IMG/VR virus record: IMGVR_UViG_3300037501_000255 | Length of the DNA: 64,000 bases | Reading direction: 5' to 3' (one strand) | DNA from: a virus | Taxonomy: Duplodnaviria > Caudoviricetes | In this document: positions 1-31,731 of the stretch, piece by piece | How the letters are laid out: each line of letters opens with the position of its first letter | Numbering within the stretch: the stretch's first letter is position 1 | The notes under the pieces: generated by a model | The model's input: the letters and a program-made list of their open reading frames with translations, nothing else | Database searches by the model: none | What the model was told of the DNA's origin: nothing | Position numbers and translations under genes: made by a program

Positions 1-447
1 TGGCCCAGGGCTAGAGTCTGCAATGGTATCGAACAGTGCGAAGTGACGCTGATCGTCGCCAGCCTCACCAGAGATTCGACCGAAGGCGCGCATGGTGCCA
101 CCATCGACCGCACGATTCTCGACATTCCGATATCGACCCTCACGCTTGATCGGCGCACAGCGAGACTGGCGAATCTCGGATTCCATCCACTTCTGAATGG
201 AAGCGCGAATCCACTGCATCGCGAACGTGGGGAATGGACCTTTGGTGGGATCGAAGCGCTCAATCCCCCTGCACAGACCGAATACGCCCTCCTGAAAGGC
301 ATCCTCGTGCAGCTCCCTCGGGATACGCAAGAAGCGACGGATGACGAAGTGAATCAGGTTGTGATGATGAGCAATCAGCGCATTGCGCGTGGCATTGCAC
401 GGGTTGCCGAGATACTGAGTGAGGGCGTTGTCACGTTCAGTCGTCAT
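1..447 (-). CDS. Sigma-70 family RNA polymerase sigma factor (3' end runs off window)
   Basis: Not in ORF track. Hand translation from ATG at 447 (AAGGAG RBS): MTTERDNALTQYLG...RNALIAHHHNLIHFVIRRF...EDAFQEGVFGLCRGIERFDPTKGPFPTFAMQWIRASIQKW, matching sigma region 2 (DLxQEGxxGLxxAxExFDPxKG..F.TYAxxWIR). Confidence 0.88.
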   Translation of the reverse strand, partial: MTTERDNALTQYLGNPCNATRNALIAHHHNLIHFVIRRFLRIPRELHEDAFQEGVFGLCRGIERFDPTKGPFPTFAMQWIRASIQKWMESEIRQSRCAPIKREGRYRNVENRAVDGGTMRAFGRISGEAGDDQRHFALFDTIADSSPGP

Positions 448-617
448 TGCTGCTCTCCTTGGTGAGACGGATCATGGCCTTCGCCAATTGCCGCATCGCG
501 GTTTGCTGAAGTTCGCAACTCATGCGAACGCAATCCTCATCAGTCGCTTCGTCATTCAAGCGATAGATTTCCTCTTCCTTCACACTCTTCCATCAAAATC
601 TCTTCGAAAGATTTCAT
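437..617 (-). CDS. Small acidic hypothetical protein, apparently frameshifted
   Basis: GGAGG RBS + ATG at 617 (MKSFEEILM); acidic frame VKEEEIYRLNDEATDED...SSNDD* ends at 437 overlapping the sigma start; needs a 1-nt shift. Confidence 0.4.
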
Positions 618-631
618 GCTTACCTCCGTTG

Positions 632-661
632 TGGTGGGGCTTTTTCGGCTGACCCCAAGCC
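632..661 (-). ncRNA. H-type pseudoknot motif A, copy 1
   Basis: GGCUUGGGGUCAGCCGAAAAAGCCCCACCA: S1 GGCU/AGCC, S2 UGGGG/CCCCA, A-rich loop; 28/30 identical to copy at 2307-2336. Confidence 0.6.
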
Positions 662-670
662 TCGGCGATA

Positions 671-1096
671 CTAGCGAATCAGCCCGGTGGTGACAGGCGT
701 GACCGTCAGGGCGCTGCTGACCTTGCCGTTGCGCGTCTTGTTCGGCAGCTCTGCCAGCACCTTCTGGCGGAACTCTGCCTCGAATTCCTCAAGGCCGGAC
801 TGAGCAATCAGTGCAGACCTCATGTTGCGATCTGCCAGCACCACCTCATTGACCGCTTCGCGCATCACCTTGAGGAAGTGCGCGCGCTGCACACCCATCT
901 TCTTGAGAGCAAGGGCGACCGTGGGAATCAGCGGGATATCCACGGTGGGAGTGTAGGTCTCGTCAGCCGACACCGTGAGGGCTCCGCGCACCTCGATGGT
1001 GAACGGCTGCACCGTATGAGTGCCGGAAGTGATCTGGGTGCGGTCGGCCTTGACGGAGAGCTTCTCAAGGGCGAGCTTCTGGATTTCGGTGAGCAT
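671..1096 (-). CDS. Hypothetical protein
   Basis: 141 aa ORF with AGGAGG RBS, co-oriented in operon. Confidence 0.75.
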   Translation of the reverse strand: MLTEIQKLALEKLSVKADRTQITSGTHTVQPFTIEVRGALTVSADETYTPTVDIPLIPTVALALKKMGVQRAHFLKVMREAVNEVVLADRNMRSALIAQSGLEEFEAEFRQKVLAELPNKTRNGKVSSALTVTPVTTGLIR

Positions 1097-1120
1097 CGAT
1101 GCCTCCTGCAGTTGTCTGAG

Positions 1121-1183
1121 CGGACTGGCTCATCAGGCAGGGTAGTCCATGTCCCTGCGACGAGGCCGAAGCCTCGTTTCGCC
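1121..1183 (-). ncRNA. Hammerhead ribozyme, type II, with loop I/3'-tail pseudoknot
   Basis: GGC-GAAA-C-GAGGC-UUCG-GCCUC-GUC|GCAGGG-ACAUGGACUA-CCCUGC-CUGAUGA-GCC-AGUCCG: complete core (CUGAUGA, GAAA, GUC site), stems I-III all pair, loop GGACU pairs with tail AGUCC; cleavage between 1159 and 1158. Confidence 0.93.
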
Positions 1184-2242
1184 TCAGGCGAGTTCAAGCT
1201 CGCGCGAGCGCTTGGGTGCCTTGTACACGGCATCAGGTGCATCGGCGAGGAGGAAGTCCAGCGCCTTCTGATTCATCTTCTCCGCGACACCCCCACCGAA
1301 GAGGGCATCAAACTTGTTCGTGTCCGCACCCGACTGCTCGGTATTGCGGTAGTTGCGCTCGTGGGTGTTGTACTCGGTCACCGCATTGAGCAGAGCCCAG
1401 CGCGTACCAGTCACACCAGGGATGTGCGTTCCCTTGCCCATCATAGACAGGTGGAGAATCTCCTTCTGAATGTTCTCGGCACGAGTGACCGCCTTCGGAC
1501 CCTTGCCCTCCGTGGGGGCCATGGTCTCCAGGAAATCTCGGGTGTAGGCGGCATCCGCACGCAGACCGGCAAGCCACGTAGAGATCCGACGGAACTGCTC
1601 GGCTTCCTCCGAGGCCAGACCGAGAATCTCGCGCGCCTGCTGAATCTTGCGAGTCGGGTCACCAACGTGCTTGATGGTCACCCCATCCTCACCCGTGCGC
1701 AGGGCGAGGTTGAGTGTGTTCTGACACACGATGCGGACCGACGTGAACTTGCACTTCAACGAGTTATTGCCGTCGTGGCCGGTCGTGAGCATCAGGAACA
1801 TCTTGGTCTTATCACCAAGAATCGGCTCCAGCTCGTATCCATCACCAAGCAGCTGCGCCAGCAGCCAGATGCGCTTACCGCCATCGATCGAGCCGGCCGT
1901 CACGTAGCGCAGCTGACTAAGCTCGCCCACCGCCGAATCGAGGAAGTTGAATGCCTCGGAGTTCTGGATGGGAGTGTAGCGCTCGGTGCAGGTCCCGAGA
2001 ATCTTGTTGTCGCGATCTCGCACGATATGCAGGAGCTCCTCGCTCTTGAATACTCGACCGCCGATCTCGACAGCGGCCGGGTGGAGACCGACTCGCCAAT
2101 CGAGACCCGAGAGACGCACGGTCTCGGCAGCGCTCAGAGGGCTGGCACCACCATATCCGTAGAACTTCTCCGGATTCATGTGCCAGGGCATGTCCTTGGT
2201 GAAGTCACCAACCCACATCATCGATTCAACATTCGCGGCCAT
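1184..2242 (-). CDS. DUF932 / phage-plasmid LGT TIGR03299-type protein
   Basis: Motifs GSIDGGKRIW, LTTGHDG, TSVRIVCQNTL, GTRWALLNAVTEY. Confidence 0.9.
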   Translation of the reverse strand: MAANVESMMWVGDFTKDMPWHMNPEKFYGYGGASPLSAAETVRLSGLDWRVGLHPAAVEIGGRVFKSEELLHIVRDRDNKILGTCTERYTPIQNSEAFNFLDSAVGELSQLRYVTAGSIDGGKRIWLLAQLLGDGYELEPILGDKTKMFLMLTTGHDGNNSLKCKFTSVRIVCQNTLNLALRTGEDGVTIKHVGDPTRKIQQAREILGLASEEAEQFRRISTWLAGLRADAAYTRDFLETMAPTEGKGPKAVTRAENIQKEILHLSMMGKGTHIPGVTGTRWALLNAVTEYNTHERNYRNTEQSGADTNKFDALFGGGVAEKMNQKALDFLLADAPDAVYKAPKRSRELELA

Positions 2243-2306
2243 TGCGGACTCCTGACGGTAGCATCGCGGCTACTCGGTGTTGCCGGAGCCTATCCCGGCA
2301 TGGGGC

Positions 2307-2336
2307 TGGTGGGGCTTTTTTGGCTAACCCCAAGCC
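2307..2336 (-). ncRNA. H-type pseudoknot motif A, copy 2
   Basis: GGCUUGGGGUUAGCCAAAAAAGCCCCACCA, 7 nt after a UAG stop. Confidence 0.6.
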
Positions 2337-2343
2337 ACCATTT

Positions 2344-2844
2344 CTACTCTAGACCCATGACCTTGCGAGACATTCTGCGCAGGCGCTCGCCGATGAATTC
2401 AATATCTGCCTCAGAGAACGCCTCAGAGCACATGATGACCCAGAGGTTGTGCGTGCGGTCCGGCTCGAAGTATCGCTCCAATTCTCGATACCTCTGCGTT
2501 TTTGGATGGACCTTGGTGCCGACAATCAGCACATTCAGGTAGTTGCCGTGACCATATACTCGATCGCAGCGCTCCACGAGATGCGGGTCCAGCATGCGAG
2601 TGCGCTTCTGCTCGCTGTATGCTGCGCCGCAATTGATTTCCACATTGAGGAAGAAGCTGCGCCCATTCCGACGTGGGAGTGCGAACTGCAGGTCCATCCT
2701 ACGAGGGTGCCTTAGCTCACCGGGGTAGGTAACCTCCTCTCGGGTTTGGATTGCTGCAAGCACGGCACTCTCGCGCACTTGCGAAGGACGATGAATGAAG
2801 GGGCGCAGGCTTGTCGCAACAGATCGTTCGAGTCGTGTCAGCAT
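2344..2844 (-). CDS. Hypothetical protein (possible PD-(D/E)XK-like fold)
   Basis: 166 aa ORF; MDLQF...NVEIN spacing weakly resembles D..E-x-K. Confidence 0.6.
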   Translation of the reverse strand: MLTRLERSVATSLRPFIHRPSQVRESAVLAAIQTREEVTYPGELRHPRRMDLQFALPRRNGRSFFLNVEINCGAAYSEQKRTRMLDPHLVERCDRVYGHGNYLNVLIVGTKVHPKTQRYRELERYFEPDRTHNLWVIMCSEAFSEADIEFIGERLRRMSRKVMGLE

Positions 2845-3089
2845 GGCTCACCTCAGATGAGACCTTCGGTTGCGGACATCGGGGCGGGCGCCTTGACCTT
2901 ATCCTTCGGAGCTTTCTTCGTGAACACAGGATTATCGCGGTCAAAGAACCCAGCATCAACGCTAAGCTCAATCTCTGACCTTGAGAGCAATAATGAGGCT
3001 TTCGAGTTCGGGAACATTCTTCTTCTTGAGTACAATGCGACCCAGCATGGTTCGTCTCCATCGTATGCGTTACGGTATCAAACGAAGTA

Positions 3090-3173
3090 TGCAGGTGGCG
3101 GGACTCGAACCCGCACGGGTTTTCCCCACAGGAATCTAAATCCTGCGCGTGCTGCCAATTTCGCCACACCTGC
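3090..3173 (-). tRNA. trnL: tRNA-Leu (anticodon TAG), no encoded CCA
   Basis: GCAGGTG/CACCTGC acceptor stem, TGGCGAAATTGGCA D-arm, CAGGA-TTTAGAT-TCCTG anticodon arm, long variable arm, GGTTCGAGTCC T-arm. Confidence 0.95.
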
Positions 3174-3200
3174 ATGGAGGAGCTTACGCTCCTCTGGGAC

Positions 3201-3401
3201 TCAGTCGCCCCGGTACCTGCCGAACTCTGGTTCATCCTCATCATCCGCATCGACATCATCCATGTCTGCGGATACCAACTGGCCCGTTGCGGGGTCCACA
3301 GACAGGCCGGTATGAATGATGATTTCTGCCCCGTCCTCATCCACCATCCCATTCGGGAAATAGCGGCGAGCGAGGTCCTTCAGGTCTTTCACGGTTCTCA
3401 C
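3201..3401 (-). CDS. Small acidic hypothetical protein
   Basis: 66 aa ORF in tightly packed operon. Confidence 0.65.
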   Translation of the reverse strand: MRTVKDLKDLARRYFPNGMVDEDGAEIIIHTGLSVDPATGQLVSADMDDVDADDEDEPEFGRYRGD

Positions 3402-3408
3402 AGATTCC

Positions 3409-3636
3409 TCACTTCGGATTGTTCAGGCGATTCTTGATTGCTTCGATGGCTTCCACTCCCCACCGTGGGTTGCGGGCCACCGCATCTCGTGCATGATTCA
3501 GAGCTTCATTCATTGCCTCCAAGATGACATCTTCTGCTTCGCGAAATGCTTGCCTGTCACCATCGAGATGCAAGCGCTTGAGTAGCATGTGAGCGAACTG
3601 CTGAGGATCTTCGATGTCGCGGTCAGGTCGCTGCAT
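3409..3636 (-). CDS. Hypothetical protein
   Basis: MQRPDRD... start after GAGGAAG RBS, coupled to the ligase end. Confidence 0.65.
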   Translation of the reverse strand: MQRPDRDIEDPQQFAHMLLKRLHLDGDRQAFREAEDVILEAMNEALNHARDAVARNPRWGVEAIEAIKNRLNNPK

Positions 3637-4795
3637 TCTCTTCCTCCTTGTAGCGGTCACCCAGGACAGCGCGAACCTTGCTCTTAAAGAGCTTACAGAA
3701 TCCCGTGTCATTCATTTGCATGAATGCATTGTGGACCGTGTTGCTCTTGCCTGCACGAGTCGTGAACAGAGCTGCGGTGTAATCGAGCTTTCGGGCCTGA
3801 ATGGCGAGGGCGAATTCCTTCTGAGATTCAATCCATCGACACTCCTCGAACACCGCTTCATGCTGAGCGATGACGGACTGGATGATGTTCGACACTGCAT
3901 CCAAGTCATCCTTGTACTGCGGGAAATGCGTGGTAATTTCCTCGTAGTCATTCGACTTGGCGAGGAGAATCAGGTTGTTGATGCCCCGCAGACCGTCTTT
4001 GGCTCGGTGCAGCTGGACATACTGGTCGCTCTTGATCTTCACACGGTTGTAGTCGCCGTCACACGCCACGAAGCCCTCAAGCTCGGTGGCTGCATGCTTA
4101 TTGGCAAACTCTGCCACCTCCGCACCGCTGGCAAAGCGGTAACTCTTGGGAAGCGTGGCTCCATGACCGCAGACCTCAACCGCCTCTTCTTGCATGGTGC
4201 GGATGTTGCGGATGGCTAGCAGCTTGGCCGAAAATCCCTCATGGCGCACAACCACCATGTTGTGCTGGGAGCAGATCTCAAATGTCCAGGTTTCGTATGG
4301 CGGTTGCAGGTCCAGGGGAGAGGTTCCGTCCTCTCTCACGCCTACATTCCCCACACACCGATCAATCAACTCCTGCCAGGTGATGACCCCGGAGTTGACC
4401 GTATTGGTCCGCAGACCATCAGGCAGCTGGAACCGCGTCGAGTACTCGAACCGCTGGGTGTGAGGACTCCACCAGCGATTCACCATCGAGCCATCGATCT
4501 TCTCGTAGACCTTTGCAGTCCCCCAGTCGATTGGGGCAGCGTAGTGCTCGCCGAAGTTAAAGAACTTCGCCAGACCGAATGCGATGACATCGAAGGTTTT
4601 CGCATCCAGCACCAGCCCACGACACGCGTAACCGAAGGGCTCGGTCCACTTCACTGCCAACTGATCGTAGTCGAGAATGAGATGCAATCCATCGGACTTG
4701 CCACTGATGCCATGCTCAGCGTCGAACTGTTCGAGCGTTTTCCCTGAGCGCAGGTAGTCCTGCGTAGCTCGCAGGGCATCTTGGATGGTGAACAT
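3623..4795 (-). CDS. T4 Rnl1-like ATP-dependent RNA ligase
   Basis: Motif I YEKIDGS, ACRGLV, KFFN, TFEI, EGFV, RVKIKSDQY; start MFTIQ at 4795. Confidence 0.9.
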   Translation of the reverse strand: MFTIQDALRATQDYLRSGKTLEQFDAEHGISGKSDGLHLILDYDQLAVKWTEPFGYACRGLVLDAKTFDVIAFGLAKFFNFGEHYAAPIDWGTAKVYEKIDGSMVNRWWSPHTQRFEYSTRFQLPDGLRTNTVNSGVITWQELIDRCVGNVGVREDGTSPLDLQPPYETWTFEICSQHNMVVVRHEGFSAKLLAIRNIRTMQEEAVEVCGHGATLPKSYRFASGAEVAEFANKHAATELEGFVACDGDYNRVKIKSDQYVQLHRAKDGLRGINNLILLAKSNDYEEITTHFPQYKDDLDAVSNIIQSVIAQHEAVFEECRWIESQKEFALAIQARKLDYTAALFTTRAGKSNTVHNAFMQMNDTGFCKLFKSKVRAVLGDRYKEEENAAT

Positions 4796-4797
4796 TT

Positions 4798-4992
4798 CTA
4801 CCTCGGTTCCCAGTCGTTGCAGACTTGCACTTTCCTGCAACGCATGTTGTTATGAGTGCCATGACACTGCATCTCAGTAGAATGTGAGATGCAGCGCATG
4901 TTTGTATGCCACCAGTATGTGCCGCCGAAGATTGCCACTGTGATGGTAATCAGCAGTAGAACCACGCCGGCATTACTCAGTCGTTGCCTCAT
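4798..4992 (-). CDS. Small membrane protein with Cys-rich extracellular part
   Basis: MRQRLSNAGVVLLLITITVAIFGGTYWW TM helix followed by four Cys. Confidence 0.6.
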   Translation of the reverse strand: MRQRLSNAGVVLLLITITVAIFGGTYWWHTNMRCISHSTEMQCHGTHNNMRCRKVQVCNDWEPR

Positions 4993-5186
4993 CCGCCAGT
5001 CGAGCCGCCGGGCGTTCCGGACTTTCGATAACCTCGACGAGGGCGAGGTCGACGCCACCGATGCACTGGTAGCTCGTACCGCCATCGATAAACGTGCGGT
5101 TGGGGCGACAAGTCGTGGCGGTGTCGCGATTCCAGAACATCCAGACACTCCTTGCAGAGGATAATGTTGCGTGGTCTCTCACTCAT
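4973..5186 (-). pseudogene. Small phage Zn-binding protein (CxxC..ESxHRHD..CxC..IDGG family), frameshifted
   Basis: Frame 1 LCKECLDVLESRHRHD joins frame 2 CRPNRTFIDGGTSYQ; the usual FVxCxC segment is missing. Confidence 0.65.
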
Positions 5187-5319
5187 AACGAGGCCTCCGT
5201 GTGGTTTCTTCGGGAAACTCATCCTGTGTAGTACTTGACGAGCTTATCACCGTCAGGAACAGCCAGCGCCTCTTGTGCGATCTCGCTGAGGCTGGTCCGG
5301 CCAGGGTCGGGAATCTCAA

Positions 5320-5551
5320 TCATGCCAACGCCTCCCTCTTTTCTTTGGGAATCATATGTTCGCCCAGAGTCACATCTAGGAGAATGGCACGGGCCAGCGG
5401 GAAGGATGGATTCTTCTCGCAAGCATCAATGGCGCCCGTGCGTTTCAGGTAGGTCACCACCACTGTGGCGCCCATCCAGCGCGAGAGTGTCTGATGTCGA
5501 GTCTGCGCGTCTTTGGCTTCCATTTCAAAGCCCCATTCGGTTGATGAGCAT
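5320..5551 (-). CDS. Hypothetical protein (probable 1-nt homopolymer frameshift near 5525)
   Basis: AGGA RBS + ATG 5551 (MLINRMGL) joins ORF 5320-5523 if CTTTG is read as CTTG. Confidence 0.5.
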
Positions 5552-5557
5552 GTTATA

Positions 5558-5648
5558 TCCTGTTCGTAGGACTTCGGTCACCATCATTGCAGGCGACTGC
5601 GGCTACGCGATGTGGCTGCCGGCCCCATTGCCCAGGGGCCGTTTGGGT
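5558..5648 (-). ncRNA. Structured RNA motif B, copy 1 (pseudoknot + 3 hairpins, riboswitch-like)
   Basis: 91 nt, same length and loops as copy at 7712-7802, compensatory changes in two stems. Confidence 0.7.
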
Positions 5649-5894
5649 TCACTGTGGTGTACCGCACTCCCTCACGATGAGCGCATCACACTCCCTGCCC
5701 GGCTTCTTCTGGAAGCACTGCGTGCGATCCAGGAAGTCGCGAACGCACTGATCGCGCCTCATCCCCTCCACGCGAGTCTGCACCTCCGAGATGCCGCTGT
5801 ATGCGGCCTGTCCGACCTTGCGCGGATTTTGGAAGGCGAGCACGCCGAAAACTCCGATGACGATTCCGATGACGAGAGCAATGAACTTGTCCAT
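5649..5894 (-). CDS. Small membrane protein
   Basis: N-terminal TM helix, four Cys. Confidence 0.7.
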   Translation of the reverse strand: MDKFIALVIGIVIGVFGVLAFQNPRKVGQAAYSGISEVQTRVEGMRRDQCVRDFLDRTQCFQKKPGRECDALIVRECGTPQ

Positions 5895-5983
5895 ATTTCC
5901 TTCTCAGTCTGCCATGATGTCTGCGAAGAGTATCACCACGCCCCAGATGAACGTGGTGGTGGCAAAGAATGCTGCGATGTAAA

Positions 5984-6181
5984 TCATACCGAGTATTGCA
6001 TGCGATCCATGCGGTCGCGTGCCTCCAAGTATTCCAGCGTCACCACCTGAGTGAGCTGGTCGTTGCAGAGGTGGTCGAAATCATCGCCGAGACCCAGGAT
6101 GGAATTGCGGTCCTCGACCGGCGAATCATTCAGCGGGGTACCGTCAGGTTCGTGCATGTCGATGTTGATGAGCTTGTGCAT
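5984..6181 (-). CDS. Hypothetical protein
   Basis: 65 aa acidic ORF with GGAG RBS. Confidence 0.6.
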   Translation of the reverse strand: MHKLINIDMHEPDGTPLNDSPVEDRNSILGLGDDFDHLCNDQLTQVVTLEYLEARDRMDRMQYSV

Positions 6182-6386
6182 GATTCACTCCAGGTTGGTG
6201 GTTTTGGCGCCGTCCACAACGGACAAAGAACAGGGCACCATCTCACGCGCAACTTCTTCTGCGTAGTGTGTTGCTTACGGGGAGGTATGTTTCCGCCAGG
6301 ACTCCACACCATCCATAATGTCTTGCCCTGCTGCACACGCGGATGGGACACTTGCGCTCCTGCAAATCAGAGATCGTCCGTACGCA

Positions 6387-6821
6387 TCACTGCACCTCAC
6401 GAATGAACTTGCTGAGCTGCTCCTGCTCCAGCACACAGCCATTAGGGCTGCGGCTTGCGGAGAGCTGCGCGGCGGTCATCATCACCACACCGAAGTAGAT
6501 GTCACTGTCTACATCTAGGTCGTGGCTGCGCTGGGCCGCAACCTCAGCATGCGCCTTCTCGGCGAACCCATGCCAGTAAGTGTTGCCGTTGGGGTATTGT
6601 GTGCGGATCAGGAAGCATCCGCGCTCATCGGTTTGTGCGATCCTTTGGCTCATTTTCATTGTCCCTCGAAAGCGTTGACGGTCGGCGTAGTGCATCATGC
6701 TGCCGTCATGGCCCAGCACGAACACTACATCTAGAATCTGGTCTGCAGCGATGACCTCTCTCCCATGTTCACTTTTCTTGCGTGGATTTGGAAACGGCAC
6801 GCCGCAGTCGGCCGTGCTCAT
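6387..6821 (-). CDS. Hypothetical protein
   Basis: 144 aa ORF in operon. Confidence 0.6.
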   Translation of the reverse strand: MSTADCGVPFPNPRKKSEHGREVIAADQILDVVFVLGHDGSMMHYADRQRFRGTMKMSQRIAQTDERGCFLIRTQYPNGNTYWHGFAEKAHAEVAAQRSHDLDVDSDIYFGVVMMTAAQLSASRSPNGCVLEQEQLSKFIREVQ

Positions 6822-6961
6822 CCGAAGCTTCCAGCAACTTCCGACAGCAAATGTCCACCCAGGTTTTGTGCGAGAATGCTCGGCACTTCATGAAGGTCTT
6901 GCTTGCCTCCTCGAAATCCCTAAGTGCTTTGTTGAGCCGCTCTTCTGAGCGGGCGAGCGCA

Positions 6962-7264
6962 TCACTCATCATCATCCTCCTCGGGGAACAACTTGTCATC
7001 CTCCTCGGGGAACAACTTGTCCCATTCGGCAGGGGTCGTGCCGGTCATGATAAACTCACGCTCAGGTGGGGCGAGGAACGGAAATGCATCTTGTATGAGT
7101 GCACCGTTTACGTAGGACGAGATGGCCGTACACATCTTGCCGAAAGGATGGTCGAACACCATCTCCTTAGAGACGATCCCTGGGCCCATCAGGCTTCGAC
7201 CTTCGCGAACCACGATAGTGCGATCGGCGCCGTCGTGAAGCAGACGAAAAGTAGCAGGAAACAT
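6962..7264 (-). CDS. Conserved phage protein (LIQDAFPxL..EREFIxTG..WD motif)
   Basis: Start MFPATF after GGAGG; C-terminal KLFPEEDD twice. Confidence 0.75.
   Translation of the reverse strand: MFPATFRLLHDGADRTIVVREGRSLMGPGIVSKEMVFDHPFGKMCTAISSYVNGALIQDAFPFLAPPEREFIMTGTTPAEWDKLFPEEDDKLFPEEDDDE
6973..7021. repeat. 24-bp perfect tandem duplication
   Basis: catcctcctcggggaacaacttgt x2, encodes DKLFPEED x2. Confidence 0.9.
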
Positions 7265-7265
7265 C

Positions 7266-7706
7266 TCAGACCTCCTCGGGAAGTTGCACGGCCGAAGCCA
7301 TGCGCTTGATGCCTTCGAGCGGAACACCGTGCGTGTTGCGACGAGCGTACGTCTCGCACGCCTCGGGTGTGAACTCGCCCACCACCTCGAACACCACGTC
7401 GTACCCCATGGCACGAGCAAGCTTGATGTAGGGCTCGCGGTGCTCGGCACGGATGTTCGTGTTGTCCACGATCACCTGATCGACGCTGTCGGCGAGGGCG
7501 AGCGCGAACTTCTGGAAGTTCAGTGCGTGATTTTGCGTGAGCTTGCCCGGATTGAACCGGTAGACTCCGCCCTCCATGAAAAAGTCGTCCGTGGAACACA
7601 CCACGGTCCTAAGACCGAAATCCTCGCCCGCCTTGACCATCTTGGACACAGCAGTCGACTTGCCGGCGCCAGGAAGGCCGATCATAAGCACAGCAACCTT
7701 CGACAT
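7266..7706 (-). CDS. AAA_33 / polynucleotide-kinase-like P-loop kinase
   Basis: GLPGAGKST, STDDFF, VIVDNTN, RNTHGVP (N4BP2/PNK-type). Confidence 0.88.
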   Translation of the reverse strand: MSKVAVLMIGLPGAGKSTAVSKMVKAGEDFGLRTVVCSTDDFFMEGGVYRFNPGKLTQNHALNFQKFALALADSVDQVIVDNTNIRAEHREPYIKLARAMGYDVVFEVVGEFTPEACETYARRNTHGVPLEGIKRMASAVQLPEEV

Positions 7707-7711
7707 AGGAA

Positions 7712-7802
7712 CCCCGTTCGTGGGACTACGTTCCCCATCATTGCAGGGGAATACGGCTACATGATGTAGCTGCCGGCCCCATTACCCAGGGGCCGTTTGG
7801 GT
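7712..7802 (-). ncRNA. Structured RNA motif B, copy 2
   Basis: ACCCA-AAC-GGCCCC-UGGGU-AAU-GGGGCC pseudoknot, GCUAC/GUAGC, UUCCCC/GGGGAA, UCCC/GGGG hairpins. Confidence 0.7.
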
Positions 7803-8210
7803 TCACTTCTTGAGGATGGCGTCGAGCGGACGAGCGGCGGACCGGGCCTGCACCTCCTCGGCGCGCTGACGACGGACGAGGCTGATGGTCTGAGTCTTGA
7901 CCCAGCCGACGCACGGGGTGTTGAGGGGGAGGCGGATCGTGCGGGACTCCCCCTTGTCCATGGCATCCGGAACGGTGGTCACATCCGCGAAATTCATGTG
8001 CGGAATGACCCGCACGCACGCGATGGCACGGTGCCCGCCGCTGGGGAGCTGGACCACCGGACGGTCCGCCTCCGGGTCGTTGGCGGCGAACAAGACCGAG
8101 CTCAGGGGGCGGGTGAGGGGCTTGCCGCTGGTCTTATTCGCCGCCTCCTTCTGCTGCGTCTTGCTGATCTCGATGTGGCCGATGACGCGAGCGGTGTTGT
8201 TCTGGGACAT
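7803..8210 (-). CDS. Hypothetical protein
   Basis: Start MSQNN after AGGAG RBS. Confidence 0.7.
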   Translation of the reverse strand: MSQNNTARVIGHIEISKTQQKEAANKTSGKPLTRPLSSVLFAANDPEADRPVVQLPSGGHRAIACVRVIPHMNFADVTTVPDAMDKGESRTIRLPLNTPCVGWVKTQTISLVRRQRAEEVQARSAARPLDAILKK

Positions 8211-8250
8211 GTCTCTCTCCTGTATGCGCAAAGACCCTGCGCAAGGTGTT

Positions 8251-8324
8251 CCCGGACTTGGAACCGGGCTCCGGAGACTCTTTCCGGAGGGCCTTACTAA
8301 GAGTTCCCCCCTAGTCCTCGGTCA
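8251..8324 (-). ncRNA. Twister-like ribozyme candidate, copy 1
   Basis: GAG-GA/P1(GGAA loop)/UAA, P3, P4 CCCGG-UUCCAAGU-CCGGG; L4 UC pairs with GA after GAG. Confidence 0.6.
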
Positions 8325-8507
8325 ACGATCCCACGCCTTCCGACCACGCCGCTGGAACTTCCAATTACGCTGTTTTTCGCGGGTTTCGTCATCATATGCA
8401 TCCGCGAGGTTACGGGGGGTGCGCTTGCCACGCACGAACTCCCGAACCTCGGGCGCAGCGTTCTGAACCTTCTCGTTCTGGGACTTAGGACGACGCATCC
8501 AACCCAT
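8322..8507 (-). CDS. Small basic (Arg-rich) protein between the two twister-like RNAs
   Basis: 61 aa, RRPK..VRGKRTPRNLADAYDD, GGGAGA RBS. Confidence 0.7.
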   Translation of the reverse strand: MGWMRRPKSQNEKVQNAAPEVREFVRGKRTPRNLADAYDDETREKQRNWKFQRRGRKAWDR

Positions 8508-8557
8508 TGTCTTCTCCCAAATAAAAGGCCGTAAAATCTTGTTTTTGTTTATTTTTC

Positions 8558-8632
8558 CCGGGACTTGGGACCCGGCCCCTAAGAGTCTCCCAGGGGGGCC
8601 TTACTAGGGGTTTACCCCCTAGCCCTCGGTCA
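8558..8632 (-). ncRNA. Twister-like ribozyme candidate, copy 2
   Basis: GAG-GG/P1/UAA, P3, P4 CCGGG-UCCCAAGU-CCCGG; L4 CC pairs with GG after GAG (covaries with copy 1). Confidence 0.6.
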
Positions 8633-8818
8633 GCGGCGGGCCGGCAGGCCCACACCCAGACGCTCACGACGCCAGAAGAACCGGCGACGGATCGTCTCCT
8701 CGAACACGTCGGGCCGCTGGCCCTCGGGGACCGAGTAGGTCACACCCTCCACCGAGATCATGCCCTCGGACAGCGGCTTACAATCCTCGGTCCGACGGCG
8801 GATGAAGGTTGCGGTCAT
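8630..8818 (-). CDS. Hypothetical protein (first ORF of left arm)
   Basis: 62 aa ORF with AGGT RBS; stop overlaps twister-like copy 2. Confidence 0.6.
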   Translation of the reverse strand: MTATFIRRRTEDCKPLSEGMISVEGVTYSVPEGQRPDVFEETIRRRFFWRRERLGVGLPARR

Positions 8819-8829
8819 GTTGCACCTAT

Positions 8830-9555
8830 CTGCGTTCCCCCAGGGTTATCCCAGGGTCCTACGGCTTTAGACGTAGCTTAGGCCCATTAGTGCAATGCAC
8901 CGGCGTATCTCCTACTAGTCAGTCCCTCACCCTAAGGCATCCCCTAGGGTCAGTAGACACACCCCTACCGTGGACCGCTTCGGGCAGTCAAGCTAGTGTC
9001 ACACCCTTTCGGGCTAGCTTCCTTTTGTAGTGGCGTTTTCCTTTAGGTGCCAAAGGATGCGCGGTCACTTGTCTAGGCAGACAGACCGGCTCACACGCTA
9101 TGGCATCGGAGACTTGCCGGTGTCCCGATTAGCTTACTGTTTCGCTTTAGCCTTTACGTTTGGGAATAGATGGGGCTAGCTGGCAATTGGGTTAGGGAAG
9201 GAACCTAACCGCGTTGCTGCTTGCCCGGTTCGGCTAGGTAGCGTGGCCCGTATTGCCTCGCTTCCCTAACCCATCCTAACCCCTTTCGGTTAGGCGCTAG
9301 CTAGGGATCTCTCCCGTAAGCTAGTCGGGGCACCTTATTACGCCAGCCCTTTCGGACCGACTACGCACACGCCGCTTGCGCGGGATGCGTGGGGGATTCC
9401 GGGCTATCTAGACCCGCTCCTACCCTACTATACTTCCCTTTATGACCCGACCAGGTTAGTGAAACCGGATCTGATCCTATCGGGCTTGGGCCGTCCCGCT
9501 ACCGCGTTCCGCCCGTAGCGGTGTCACCCGCTAGCACCTTGTCATCGGCGCACCC
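8830..9555 (-). ncRNA. Large highly structured non-coding RNA (GOLLD/ROOL size class, unassigned)
   Basis: No long ORF; more than 12 hairpins including GNRA loops (GUCC-GAAA-GGGC, CCUAACC-GAAA-GG..GUUAGG, CCGC-GCAA-GCGG, GGGA-GAGA-UCCC, CCC-GAAA-GGG) and long-range GGGUUAGGGAAG/CUUCCCUAACCC. Confidence 0.65.
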
Positions 9556-9606
9556 TTTATTATGATTCAATCGGGTTAGTGAAAAGAGATCTAGATCTAG
9601 ATCTAG
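9436..9606 (-). promoter_or_regulatory. Duplicated promoter-like motif TTTCACTAACC-N8-TCATAA plus (GATCTA)3 palindromic array
   Basis: Two copies about 120 bp apart, each preceded by GATC-A/TAGATC; AGATCTAGATCTAGATCT at 9587-9604. Confidence 0.45.
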
Positions 9607-10228
9607 CGTACCTTATCGCACACATTCCTACATGTAGGAGGGGGTAGGGGGGTGTAGGTCCCACCGAGAATGCCTCCAAACTACCCAGTTACACTTTTTT
9701 CCACTCACAAACTCTATAGTATATCACTATCTTTTCTATAGTCTAGCGCTATCTAGGTACTGTGGGAGTCATCCGTAATTAAATCACACATATTTCCAAT
9801 AGCTTTCCCCTACCTTATACGGTTGCTCTCTTATATTAGCTACGTGGGCGGGTGGCTCTATGTGAAAAATACGGTTGGTCTAGGGATATGGGGGGGGGGG
9901 TGATGGTAGCTGTTGCGGGAGACCTGAGCCTATGCGTGAACGGTGGTATTGGGGCGGTTTTTGTCGTGATTTTAATAGGGCGGGAGATTCTGCTTTTCAG
10001 CTATATGATGATGTTATAATGGTGGGTTTGAATTCTTCCGGGGATTTGGTACGTGCCGGAGATTGTTATCCTATGGTGGGTATTTTTGTGTGTCATGGTA
10101 GTACTTTTTGTCAGGAATATTATCATGTTCAGCAGTGTGCAGCTGGATTCTATACGTAACACTTGGATGAGAGTGGGAGTATTATTTGGATTGAAGGCTA
10201 GGCTGGCCTAGATTTTGGTGGGAGGGGT

Positions 10229-11438
10229 ATGATATTGCGTTACGAGGATGGGTTAATTCGGGATATTTGGTCTGGGTCACGGACTTTGATTTTGTGGGAT
10301 TTATTAGAACGGTTGCATGTTGAAGCCCAGACTGGTTGGGCATTGGGGCAATTCGTTTGCGATTGGGATGCCTTTGGGGTTCGCAAGGCGGCTTTGGAGT
10401 TGGAAACCCGGCATGAATTTGTAGCGTTTTTGGGGCAATCGGTGAGGTAGAACATCCGGATCGTGAGTGGGTAGACCGCTACTACCATCGTAGGCTAACC
10501 TCTTCTGATATTTTAGATAGCGCGTTTTCGGTACAGATTACCGAGTCTGTGGTATATTTGCGGAGTTTGGTGGGCGGCTTACGCGATACTTTAAAAAATT
10601 TGGGAGATCGATTTCTATCGGCCGTTCGGGCGGGGCGTACTCATGGTCAGATAGCTGAAGCCACTTCTTTGGGTTGGACTTTTATAGTGCCAGATCGGAC
10701 GTTGGCGCTGAGCGTGCCGGAGTTGCCGTTAAAAGCTTCGGGTGCTACGGGCAGCTACAGCAATACCTCGTGGGAAACCGAACAGCGATTTGTGGAGTTG
10801 GTGAGTGCGCGGGTGGGTTTGCGATTCATCAGTGTTCCCAGTACGCAGGTGGTACACCGTGCGTATTATGCGCGAGTATTCAGTGAGTTAGCGGTACTCG
10901 CCTCGGTATTGGATGGCATAGCTACAGAGATGAGGCATTTGGCTATGCTGGGCTGGGCGAGGCGAGTCCTGGGTTTGGAGGCGGGCAGCGCGGTTCATCG
11001 GCTATGCCCCACAAAAATAATCCCGCAGTTTTCGAGAATATCACTGGATTATGCCGTTTGGTTCGCGGCTATATGTCTCCGGTTTTGGAGAATGTCGTAC
11101 TATGGGGCGAGCGCGACATTTCGCACTCTTCGGTTGAACGGGTTGTTTGGCCGGATGCCCTTCATGCACTGTGCACTGCGGTGGTACGACTAAACGTGGA
11201 GCTAGTACGTATGAATTGGAACGTAGACTTCATGCGTCAGGTGGTTGACGGGGCTCTTCGACAAGTTAATTCTAGCCGGGCACTTACACTGAACCGGGGA
11301 GCGATGGACTATCAGCGTGCCTATCGCGACGTACAATCTCGATGTAACGGCGATATGCCAGATGTGGTATTGGACTCTGTTCCCGTGCTAAACCTTGAAG
11401 ATCTTAAAAAGGCAGCGCGTAAAGCGCAAGGAGTATAA
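10229..11438 (+). CDS. purB: Adenylosuccinate lyase, split by two 1-nt frameshifts
   Basis: ETRHEFVAF, LTSSDILD, GRTHGQ, SGATG, STQV, GQRGSSAMPHKNNP signature, ERDISHSSVER across three frames; both shifts repaired by adding one G to a G-run. Confidence 0.88.
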
Positions 11439-11442
11439 GAAT

Positions 11443-11718
11443 ATGCTGGATCAGTGGCTTTTTACTTGCAATGGCGGTAGCAGACCGAGTGGTCCCAGTC
11501 GCTTTGTTGGCAGCTATATCGGGGATCGCGAGTCTGCTGTGGGTTGGATGAGCGATTACCTACGTAGTGGTAGTGAAAACCGGTACAATTTTGATGGCAC
11601 GGTAGACTATGCTTTTGAGCGAATTGTTATGAGTGAGATTGATTGGGCTGGCAATTTGGTCACAAGTGGCGTGTGGGCATGGCGCGATGGGGTATGGGAG
11701 TTTAGCGATGTTTTCTAA
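11443..11718 (+). CDS. Hypothetical protein
   Basis: AGGAG RBS, ATG 11443. Confidence 0.65.
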   Translation: MLDQWLFTCNGGSRPSGPSRFVGSYIGDRESAVGWMSDYLRSGSENRYNFDGTVDYAFERIVMSEIDWAGNLVTSGVWAWRDGVWEFSDVF

Positions 11719-11726
11719 TCGGTATT

Positions 11727-11975
11727 ATGCAAAATATCGTGTTGAGGGGGTTGCCGGAGCTGCCGTGGTGGAACCTGTTTAATTACGACGGGTGGGAAGG
11801 TGGATTGTGCTATTGGCGGGGAGAATCGCGTTGTGTGGTACGCACTTATAACCCCGAGAAATTTCTGGTGTACCTGAAGGAGGCTCTGGCTATGGCGCTG
11901 CTTACTTGTAGGCGGGAATTCCGAGGTAGTTTCCGGTATTTGCCGGGGTTTGAGTCGCTATTGCCAGACGGGTAG
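11727..11975 (+). CDS. Hypothetical protein
   Basis: 82 aa ORF in operon. Confidence 0.6.
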   Translation: MQNIVLRGLPELPWWNLFNYDGWEGGLCYWRGESRCVVRTYNPEKFLVYLKEALAMALLTCRREFRGSFRYLPGFESLLPDG

Positions 11976-12280
11976 CGACCGGCGTATAGCGAAAGTGCTA
12001 TGCGGCACGAAATTTAACTCACTTTTACCAAACAAATACTGAGATGGTAACGACACAGTAGGCTGGCATTCTGATGATGAGCGTTCTCTAGGAGTTTAGC
12101 CAATAATTGCAAGCCTCGGCTTTGGAGTCGCATGTGACTTCTATATAAGACATAAGTATAAGTGCAGTTATCTGAAATTAAAGCTAAATTCTGGCAGCAC
12201 TCGGTTCCTAGAAGAAAAGCAGTAGATGAAGCGCGAATAAATTTAACATTTAGAAATATAGTAGAAATATAGGAGACGAT

Positions 12281-30527: not shown

Positions 30528-31731
30528 TTGCTTTTCTCCTTGAAATATTCTTCATAACATGCCTGGCAGCAACTATACCGCTGCAGCCTGCCTGAGCGAA
30601 GGAATTTGTGTGACCACTCATGTCACCGACAATATACAGCCCGTCTATGCTGCTTTCCATATCCTTGGACAGCTGAAATTTAACAGTGTTTAGCCTTGCT
30701 TCCGGAGCGTATACGACCGTACACTTTCTGGCAGATGGAAGGAGCCTAAACAGCTCTTCTAGACCATCCTTCAGCGAGGCGTACTCAGGAATTGGCGATA
30801 GCACACTTGTATCCGACAGCCACTTGGACACAGGCTCTCGCAAAAGCTGTTCATCCGCCAGTACGTTGGCCATTTTCACTAACCGTAGTACATCTTTGAG
30901 AGGAGTTGCGCTCTTAAAAGTCTTCAATAGACATAAGCTCGCACTGTGTGTTGGTTTCCCAGATACTACACGCACATTTGAAGTTTTAAAGTCATCAACA
31001 TTCTCCATTTCTATCGTGCCACTACACGAAATAACACTAGTGCGATAATTGCCAAAAGAAACCCTAAAATTAGATGAGGAGAAATCAGATAATACTCTCT
31101 CCGGAAACTCCAGGCGTATACCCAGCTCATAGCTGTCAGCCGCTTGGTCAATTTTTAAACTTTGAAGGGCGCCCGAAGCCCAATTGGCTCCACCGCGCCC
31201 CAATGCCAAAATGCACTTCTTTGCAACAAAAACGTGATCATCTGCTGTGTATAGATGAAATTCTCCGCGAATTTTATCTATCTTCTCTACTCTACAATTT
31301 GTTTTAATATCTATCTTTGCTTGTAGGTGCTTTTGTACGGAATTTTCAATCTGAATCATCTTATCTGCTGATATAATGTATGTGTTAGGCTCAAATATAT
31401 TAAATCCCCCATCTGTCATAGCCTTTAATTCACGCTTGCCTAAACGCTGTATAATCATACGCGGATTTCCGGTCATATGCTCCTTCAAATGTGTTATAAA
31501 AGAGCGGAATAATTTAGCGGTCAATATATGACCGCCGAACCCTACATCATCAAAAATACGCACATCAGATTTGGCAGATCCGCCAAACCAACCGTTACTG
31601 ACATTGCGACTATCATGCAGCCTCTTGACCTGCTCAATTAATAGCACCGACAGATTTGTTTTTTTGGCCAGTTCCATGGCTGCTAAAAGACCGGCTGTGC
31701 CGGCCCCAACAATAACTACATCATATACCAT
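30511..31731 (-). CDS. FAD-dependent oxidoreductase
   Basis: YDVVIVGAGTAG, ILALGRGG, ELGIRLE, GLYIVGDMSG. Confidence 0.85.
   Translation of the reverse strand: MVYDVVIVGAGTAGLLAAMELAKKTNLSVLLIEQVKRLHDSRNVSNGWFGGSAKSDVRIFDDVGFGGHILTAKLFRSFITHLKEHMTGNPRMIIQRLGKRELKAMTDGGFNIFEPNTYIISADKMIQIENSVQKHLQAKIDIKTNCRVEKIDKIRGEFHLYTADDHVFVAKKCILALGRGGANWASGALQSLKIDQAADSYELGIRLEFPERVLSDFSSSNFRVSFGNYRTSVISCSGTIEMENVDDFKTSNVRVVSGKPTHSASLCLLKTFKSATPLKDVLRLVKMANVLADEQLLREPVSKWLSDTSVLSPIPEYASLKDGLEELFRLLPSARKCTVVYAPEARLNTVKFQLSKDMESSIDGLYIVGDMSGHTNSFAQAGCSGIVAARHVMKNISRRKANGRRK

Follow-up and report, generated by a model that had tools for sequence, protein, structure and literature searches.

We analysed a stretch of 64,000 nucleotides (nt), referred to below as the window, from IMG/VR virus record IMGVR_UViG_3300037501_000255 (Caudoviricetes), an uncultured giant phage that encodes a UvsW-type helicase, a class I ribonucleotide reductase and an Rnl1-type RNA ligase. 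Bases 1-9000 of the window have a G+C content of 54-61% (mean 57.7% for 1-8818) vs. 39-51% in the rest, and the genes in this GC-rich part lie on the minus strand, with plus-strand genes following from about 9850 onward. At the head of the minus-strand arm, at the divergent junction where gene orientation and GC skew flip, we found a conserved, multi-domain structured RNA element of about 873 nt on the minus strand (8819..9691), as delimited by a comparison of ten lineages. The homologous block begins at UAACUGGG (window 9691) and stops at the start codon of the next open reading frame (ORF; window 8818). An earlier reading of the letters of the window (the original prediction) had proposed a large structured RNA at 8830-9555 of the same strand; that interval lies inside the element, and the sequence features quoted for it are all present at the positions given, but the block itself reaches about 140 nt beyond the 5' limit of 9555, and its 3' edge abuts the start codon at 8818.

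Full-length matches to the element were obtained with nhmmer in nine other lineages (L004, L007, L009, L010, L012, L016, L020, L022, and L024), and three short contigs (L013, L014, and L023) hold its 3' end only. The homologous contigs, which come from ENA, JGI, and Logan assemblies, were reached via relatives of two neighboring small proteins in a large protein collection; L008 is identical to L007 over the RNA, L015 is the same ENA contig, and L020 equals L021. A variant lineage from four DNA runs equals L004, and the similarity of its contig (X4) to the window ends at 9695 and 8622. All nine other lineages are environmental, from freshwater and groundwater; the record label of L007 points to a Hainich groundwater well, and the runs carrying part of the window stretch are labeled freshwater or wetland. 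Every copy heads a GC-rich operon, and the G+C step seen in the window recurs in the relatives (e.g., L007, L009, and L012), with 41-44% upstream of the RNA and 57-64% downstream; the arm as a whole acts like a conserved module. The domains of the RNA are invariably found together, arranged in a constant order, with a single copy in the 64-kb window (nhmmer). Relative to the window, the lineages range from 0.85 down to 0.51 in nucleotide identity over the RNA, much as they do for the adjacent coding gene, so the RNA is under a constraint comparable to that on the gene.

Outside these contigs, our searches returned little. Blastn of positions 8500-10000 against the 50,697 phage genomes of INPHARED gave no match, and scans of IMG/VR with neighboring proteins and DNA patterns yielded only distant kinase/ligase relatives (L001-L003), in which the RNA is absent by nhmmer. 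A pattern scan of the JGI metagenomes added no contig beyond one already known. GTDB genome scans with two conserved patterns found nothing and therefore provided neither a prophage copy nor a clue to the host. A protein adjoining the element is also encoded on a contig of 367,953 bases. The source phages are giant phages of freshwater and groundwater that are absent from culture and from curated phage collections.

The element is a real, large structured RNA, far past chance expectation. The minimum free energy of the minus strand at 8830-9555 is -316 kcal/mol compared with -274 ± 5 kcal/mol for dinucleotide shuffles (z -8.5), whereas the plus strand of the same interval reaches a z of only -2.4; the extended element (8819-9695) and the most diverged homolog, L022, each fold with a z of -5.9. 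Consensus structures were predicted by alifold and compared with column shuffles. An alignment of six lineages gave a consensus energy of -367 vs. -233 ± 10 in shuffles (z -14), with 69 compensatory pairs vs. 28.5. In the subsequent ten-lineage alignment (A8), the energy was -266.5 vs. -107 ± 7 (z about -22), and 74 of the 188 consensus pairs carry compensatory changes, compared with 20.8 (maximum 29) in shuffles. The paired columns of this alignment contain 200 G-U cells and 56 A-C cells, and its reverse complement scores worse (-220); because of this asymmetry and the poorer folding of the reverse complement, the RNA can be assigned to the minus strand. Folding energy, G-U asymmetry, and covariation therefore bear out the large minus-strand structured RNA of the original prediction, as well as its richness in GNRA hairpins, of which the window has five vs. 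1.8 in shuffles and the relatives have 3-11 (a two- to six-fold enrichment over shuffles). The element contains no conserved ORF: two plus-strand ORFs in the window (73 and 49 codons) have no counterpart in the relatives, whose longest open frames lie on other strands or in other frames and whose indels do not come in multiples of three.

To our knowledge, few bacterial or phage RNAs longer than 500 nt with rich conserved structure have been described, namely GOLLD, ROOL, OLE, HEARO, and raiA, and every one of them has started its own field of study. The covariance models of these five families did not match the element, and none of the 4227 families of Rfam 15 was matched in the region; at the gathering score, a tRNA was the sole match in the whole window. 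Even permissive cmscan searches placed no family on the element (E ≤ 10 on 8400-10600 and 8800-9620) or on the large RNA of five related loci (E ≤ 1), and the only nearby match was a near-threshold Twister-P5 ribozyme at 8559-8630, downstream of the first ORF. Models of group I and group II introns had no match at the region, and Pfam searches near the element revealed no interrupted gene, reverse transcriptase, or homing endonuclease. Likewise, the RNase P RNA and tmRNA models remained unmatched in cmscan, and ARAGORN found only a tRNA-Leu and no tmRNA in 1-12000. The twister, twister-sister, pistol, hatchet, hammerhead, and HDV-like models gave no match inside 8800-9620 at E ≤ 10, and known riboswitch models matched neither the element nor the five relatives. 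The order and sequences of the 3' junction described below do not fit a hammerhead core (alignment A4), and Pistol-like and T-box-like resemblances were backed by no model match. As far as their models can see, GOLLD, ROOL, OLE, HEARO, introns, RNase P, tmRNA, and the curated ribozymes and riboswitches are therefore excluded. Full-text searches of the literature found no paper on a large RNA heading ribozyme arrays or in jumbo phages. We conclude that the element is a new RNA family of about 870 nt outside known families; given this lack of a known-family match and the strong covariation among homologs, the suggestion of a new large RNA class in the original prediction stands. The element is as large as GOLLD, and its covariation is clear from ten lineages alone.

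A very well supported part of the RNA is a three-way junction at its 3' end (8819..8897, minus strand), which was aligned in 12 sequences and consists of the closing helix P1 (UGCACU/GGUGCA) and the helices P1b, P2, and P3. About 25 junction nucleotides are invariant (UAAUGRGCCUAAG ... GAC ... GAU), and the peripheral stems are variable. All 12 sequences have the Shine-Dalgarno sequence of the next ORF as the 3' strand of P1 (AGGUGC, GGGUGC, or GGGAAGG, at a distance of 4-7 nt from the start codon), which places the ribosome-binding site of that ORF within a conserved helix. P1 itself covaries in the L013/L022 group, in which GCACU/GGUGC is replaced by CUUUU/GAAGG, with the purine-rich strand retained. 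When the junction was tested on eight and then on 12 sequences, 90-91% of the cells were paired, compared with 31-54% when the partners were slid by 1-3 columns; for the 12 sequences, these values were 90.9% vs. 32-52%, 13 of the 23 pairs were compensatory, and none of 500 shuffles was as good. Compensatory changes in the element therefore exceed both shuffled and slid controls, on one strand. A covariance model of the junction found exactly one copy per locus, which rules out a recurrent motif.

The junction invites comparison with translational riboswitches of the SAM-II/III and preQ1-II types, in which P1 holds the Shine-Dalgarno sequence. It shares with them a short P1 containing the Shine-Dalgarno sequence, conserved junction nucleotides, and variable stems, but it makes up only the last 80 nt of 870, and the small-protein genes downstream suggest no ligand.

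On balance, we lean toward the explanation that the element represents a new class of giant cis-leader RNA that heads a self-cleaving operon transcript. Wherever a lineage has upstream sequence, a -10-like hexamer rich in A/T precedes the conserved block by 3-5 nt, and for this reason a transcription start near 9691 is probable. From there, the RNA would be transcribed as the promoter-proximal leader (9691 to 8819) of the GC-rich operon, with twister ribozymes cutting the rest of the transcript after the genes. By holding the Shine-Dalgarno sequence of the next ORF, P1 would couple folding of the RNA to translation of the first cistron, and the first twister cut would free an RNA of about 1.1 kb that contains the leader and this cistron. 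The upstream domains may act as a folded platform for a partner, which could be a protein, a ligand, or another RNA.

Several observations weigh against this explanation. P1 is short, and by nearest-neighbor thermodynamics alone it would not stay closed, with unpaired probabilities of 0.15-0.74 for the Shine-Dalgarno sequence across the lineages, although this would be expected of a regulatory helix that depends on tertiary contacts or a partner. No covariation-supported helix was found that ties all domains into one globular fold. Candidate pairings of a C-rich block in the 5' quarter (GGGACCUACACCCCCCUACCCCCUCCUACAUGUAGG), whose partners could be GUAGGGUAGGAG, GGUAGGGG, or the start codon, involve only sequences that are invariant or do not covary. 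The first 250 nt at the 5' end hold nearly all GATC sites of the element (3-7 per lineage) as well as a duplicated box, and these features could act at the DNA level. No RNA-seq run containing the sequence was found, and we infer its transcription, ends, and processing from the DNA. Finally, a leader of 870 nt far exceeds any translational control element known to us; should the element prove to act as a leader alone, no structured translational leader known in a bacterial virus would come near it in size.

The main alternative, which is less probable, is that the element is a stand-alone, stable non-coding RNA of the GOLLD, ROOL, or OLE kind. Such an RNA, whether freed from the operon transcript or transcribed from a promoter of its own, would act in trans as a scaffold, an RNA-protein particle, or an RNA-only multimer, its contact with the ribosome-binding site being incidental. 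OLE is a large RNA that is produced from an operon and works with small partner proteins, and it occurs in anaerobic, extremophilic Firmicutes and is not known from phages. Being embedded in an operon is thus something that OLE has in common with the element, and the small Arg-rich proteins encoded by the next two cistrons could bind the element. Protein-binding sites have been described for OLE (bioRxiv 10.1101/2024.12.08.627333), but no genes of the OapA/B/C type were found here in Pfam scans, and the OLE model does not match. GOLLD is often longer than 800 nt, ornate, multi-domain, and phage-encoded, with one conserved and one variable part, and is known in part from lake metagenomes; ROOL is a large structured phage or prophage RNA with no known protein partner, and both GOLLD and ROOL, whose functions are not known, assemble into RNA-only cages (bioRxiv 10.1101/2024.12.08.627333). 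The size of the element, its ornate multi-domain fold with GNRA-rich loops, the constant order in which all of its domains co-occur, and its phage origin, which it shares with GOLLD and ROOL (bioRxiv 10.1101/2024.12.08.627333), would all fit an RNA of this kind.

However, the element has no Rfam match of any kind, and the interval from the RNA to the ORF contains neither a terminator-like site on the minus strand nor a recognizable ribozyme. Whichever ORF follows, the 3' junction ends exactly at a Shine-Dalgarno sequence and start codon. GOLLD is usually located beside or around tRNA genes of phages or prophages; the element shares the phage context but adjoins no tRNA island, the sole tRNA (3089-3174) being 5.6 kb away inside the operon. 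The element also differs from ROOL in its architecture, its freshwater and groundwater habitat, and its position at the head of an operon. Candidate symmetric kissing loops with the palindromes CUAG, CAUG, and GCUAGC were examined in alignment A8 and are not kept palindromic across the lineages; the absence of a palindromic loop that covaries like the intermolecular kissing loops of GOLLD and OLE is weak evidence against a stand-alone RNA. The resemblance to GOLLD and ROOL noted in the original prediction thus extends to size and phage context but not to gene organization, since the element abuts the Shine-Dalgarno sequence and start codon of another gene, lacks a terminator, and is no isolated gene. 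As a separate observation, CTAG is 4.7-fold enriched in the element and three-fold depleted in the remaining arm.

The 5' quarter (9691-9440) shows signals of both RNA and DNA type, and a third explanation draws on it. The conserved block starts with a 5'-terminal mini-hairpin, AACU-GGGU-AGUU (9678..9691; columns 1-45 of alignment A8). Its loop (9682-9687) reads GGGU in most lineages, whereas L009 and L022 have the complementary ACCC, corresponding to an inversion of the DNA 8-mer CTGGGTAG to CTACCCAG; no covarying partner was found. The C-rich block mentioned above, which is nearly invariant in ten lineages, is followed by the hairpin GUGUGC-GAUAAG-GUACGC (9623-9606; together 9606..9667), with one compensatory and several wobble-consistent changes. 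A cluster of three GATC sites and the first copy of a conserved box (UUUUCACUAACC ... UCAUAA) follow at 9556..9605, and the second copy lies in the loop of a hairpin with GGAUC in its 5' strand, followed by CAUAAA (9440..9475); single-sequence folds recover this hairpin in ten of ten lineages, with differing stems. The two boxes belong to a 33-nt direct repeat (9440-9472 and 9560-9592; on the minus strand, GAUC...UUUCACUAACC...UCAUAA), whose copies are 120 nt apart in the window and number two in all lineages. The boxes may be internal promoters, protein sites on DNA, or RNA motifs. The box TTTCACTAACC is not a general phage promoter, as its only other perfect copy, at 30874, lies within a gene and has no -10-like part.

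From these features, the region could be read as a mosaic of divergent regulatory DNA (promoters, operators, Dam sites, and perhaps an origin or packaging site) joined to unrelated small cis-elements of the mRNA. The 5' 250 nt indeed have GATC clusters in every lineage, palindromes (CCTACATGTAGG and AGATCT repeats), and the duplicated box, which ends in a -10-like ATCATA; a simple scan also finds sigma-70-like promoters on both strands (9745-9718 minus and 9539-9566 plus), gene orientation and GC skew flip at the region, and individual domains gain and lose sub-branches between lineages. Nevertheless, we regard a mosaic as quite improbable. The 5' hairpins covary with a minus-strand G-U asymmetry, every lineage retains a long-range helix that spans 80-156 nt, and the domains are never found apart or elsewhere, with one copy of the 3' domain per locus. 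Moreover, compensatory base changes are not produced by sites that act at the DNA level.

The same divergent junction, where GC skew changes sign, and the placement of the element at the very start of an operon longer than 9 kb, full of strong structures that could stall or terminate transcription, might also point to control of transcription itself, either by a giant antitermination or polymerase-modifying leader (for which HK022 put and EAR would be small-scale precedents) or by a replication primer of the ColE1 RNA II type. We consider this very improbable, because its support is positional only, there is no put or EAR similarity in Rfam, and it leaves the coupling of the 3' junction to the ribosome-binding site unexplained.

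The RNA folds into a string of domains, each closed independently, comprising the 5' hairpins, a multi-branch domain of about 215 nt, an internal three-way junction, and the 3' three-way junction; all are on the minus strand. Three hairpins at 9551-9534, 9532-9517, and 9512-9491 (9489..9551) have four, one, and five compensatory pairs, respectively. Downstream of the second box, two adjacent hairpins occupy 9363..9428: the first, GGGUAGGA...UCCCCC with a CUAGAUA loop (9425-9391), has 2+4 compensatory pairs and carries lineage-specific apical insertions, and the second, ACGCAUCC...GUGUGCGU (9390-9363), has three. A total of 90 nt of this stretch is identical between the window and L004. The GNRA hairpin GUCGGUCC-GAAA-GGGCUGGC (9342..9361) has three compensatory pairs and is also obtained in single-sequence folds.

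The central multi-branch domain (9119..9334), recognized in ten lineages, is closed by a long-range helix of 13-19 base pairs (bp), with strands at about 9328-9316 and 9137-9125 in the window. This helix lies in a homologous place in ten of ten lineages and encloses 80-156 nt, yet its sequences are very different (CCCGACUAGCUUA/UAAGCUAAUCGGG in the window, CCCAUUCAGAUUA/UAAUCUGAAUGGG in L010, and CCAAGUCGGGA/UCCCGACUUGG in L009), and it shows five compensatory pairs even with the raw MAFFT alignment. The original prediction had instead assumed a three-way junction in which AGUCGG (9362-9357) pairs with CCGACU (9325-9320). These segments are complementary in the window, but single changes break the pairing in both L004 and L007. 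Since the long-range helix compensates for these very changes, and since the 5' strand folds into the covarying GNRA hairpin, we replace the proposed junction with these two helices.

Within the central domain, the sub-domain 9173..9272, absent from L009, L010, and L022, carries GGUUAGG and CCUARCC elements, three of each, which allow two pairing schemes. The segments of the previously proposed 12-bp helix (GGGUUAGGGAAG, 9272-9261, with CUUCCCUAACCC, 9201-9190) and of the 8-bp inner helix (CCUAGCCG, 9237-9230, with CGGUUAGG, 9211-9204) are complementary as stated, but in the four lineages tested that have the sub-domain, this nested model leaves 83% of the cells paired with no compensatory pair, compared with 93.5% paired, four compensatory pairs, and one of 500 shuffles as good for two local hairpins. 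The ten-lineage alifold consensus kept the outer 8 bp of the nested helix, again without compensatory support. Based on these four sequences only, we prefer two long local hairpins, which is a preference and not proof, and the sub-domain could alternate between both folds.

Toward the 3' end, three more hairpins at 9117-9103, 9090-9059, and 9057-9039 (9039..9118) have 2, 3+2, and 2 compensatory pairs, respectively. They are followed by the internal three-way junction (8960..9035), which is closed by CGCCACUAC/GUAGGGGUG (9035-9027 with 8968-8960) and encloses an AAGCUAG...CUAGCUU arm, containing a GNRA hairpin and the invariant GUGACACUA, and a GACUG...CGGUC hairpin; its helices have seven, three, and two compensatory pairs.

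The first cistron after the RNA in the window, ORF1 (8630..8818, minus strand), encodes a small basic protein that is conserved in the relatives, with 62 residues in the window and 54-62 in the relatives and a C-terminal W-R/K-K/R-E-R-L-G-V-G-L-P-x-R-R motif. No family was found for it in Pfam or PHROG, and Atlas gave no useful neighbor. The Twister-P5-like ribozyme (8559..8630, minus strand) scores 36.4 bits vs. a gathering score of 37.6 and starts on the last base of the ORF1 stop codon (8632-8630). A further Twister-P5 motif was noted at 8251-8311 (minus strand) in the window. Five relatives (L007, L009, L016, L020, and L022) together have 12 Twister-P5 matches, of which six exceed the gathering score; every match is on the operon strand and follows a stop codon, and the common layout of the relatives is an AT-richer divergent side, the RNA, and then an operon of 57-64% G+C with twisters right after the stops. 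This resembles known clusters of small self-cleaving ribozymes, such as twister and hammerhead, in phage-like DNA, although the large RNA itself matches no ribozyme family.

The gene that directly follows the RNA is not constant. In L007 (3733-4091), a different ORF of 79 codons and a twister lie between the RNA and the ORF1 homolog, and in L016 (1550-3680), four other genes do so, one of which is weakly similar to ribosomal protein L12. Since a different ORF directly follows the RNA in these two lineages, the RNA belongs to the head of the operon and not to one gene, and twister-delimited cassettes seem to have been gained and lost. Besides small genes, the operon in the window contains the Rnl1-type RNA ligase (3623-4840), a P-loop kinase, and a tRNA-Leu with anticodon UAG (3089-3174, minus strand) just downstream of the ligase gene; the longer contigs of the relatives carry an AAA_33 kinase, and L007/L008 also an Rnl1 ligase.

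In light of the twister-cut transcript and the RNA ligase and kinase of the operon, it is conceivable that the element organizes a new RNA-processing system, alone or with the two Arg-rich proteins, either by scaffolding or guiding the cleavage and rejoining of RNA or as a giant switch that responds to a ligand or macromolecule and sets the fate of the self-cleaving transcript; we view such a role as unlikely at present. In any case, the element is tied to two unexplained phenomena, namely twister arrays after small genes and a GC-rich module with RNA-repair enzymes in an AT-rich phage, and together with its operon it offers a testable system for the role of self-cleaving ribozymes in phages.

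Other features of the window were noted in passing. A 95-nt repeat (87% identical) lies in two intergenic gaps of the GC-rich arm (5559-5653 and 7713-7807); it looks structured and has no Rfam match at the gathering score. The gene at 6962-7264 contains a perfect 24-bp tandem duplication (6972-7019), which repeats the peptide DKLFPEED. On the other side of the divergent junction, 9700-10550 (plus strand) is extreme in its strand composition (GC skew +0.33, AT skew -0.22), with at least 11 consecutive G at 9890-9900. The ORFs of this stretch are all small and odd-looking, and it may be a second non-coding or regulatory region that heads the plus-strand arm. Further along this arm, an adenylosuccinate-lyase-like gene (Lyase_1, just below the Pfam cut-off) is split over the overlapping frames 10549-11193 and 11004-11438 (plus strand), which could reflect a frameshift, a pseudogene, or recoding.

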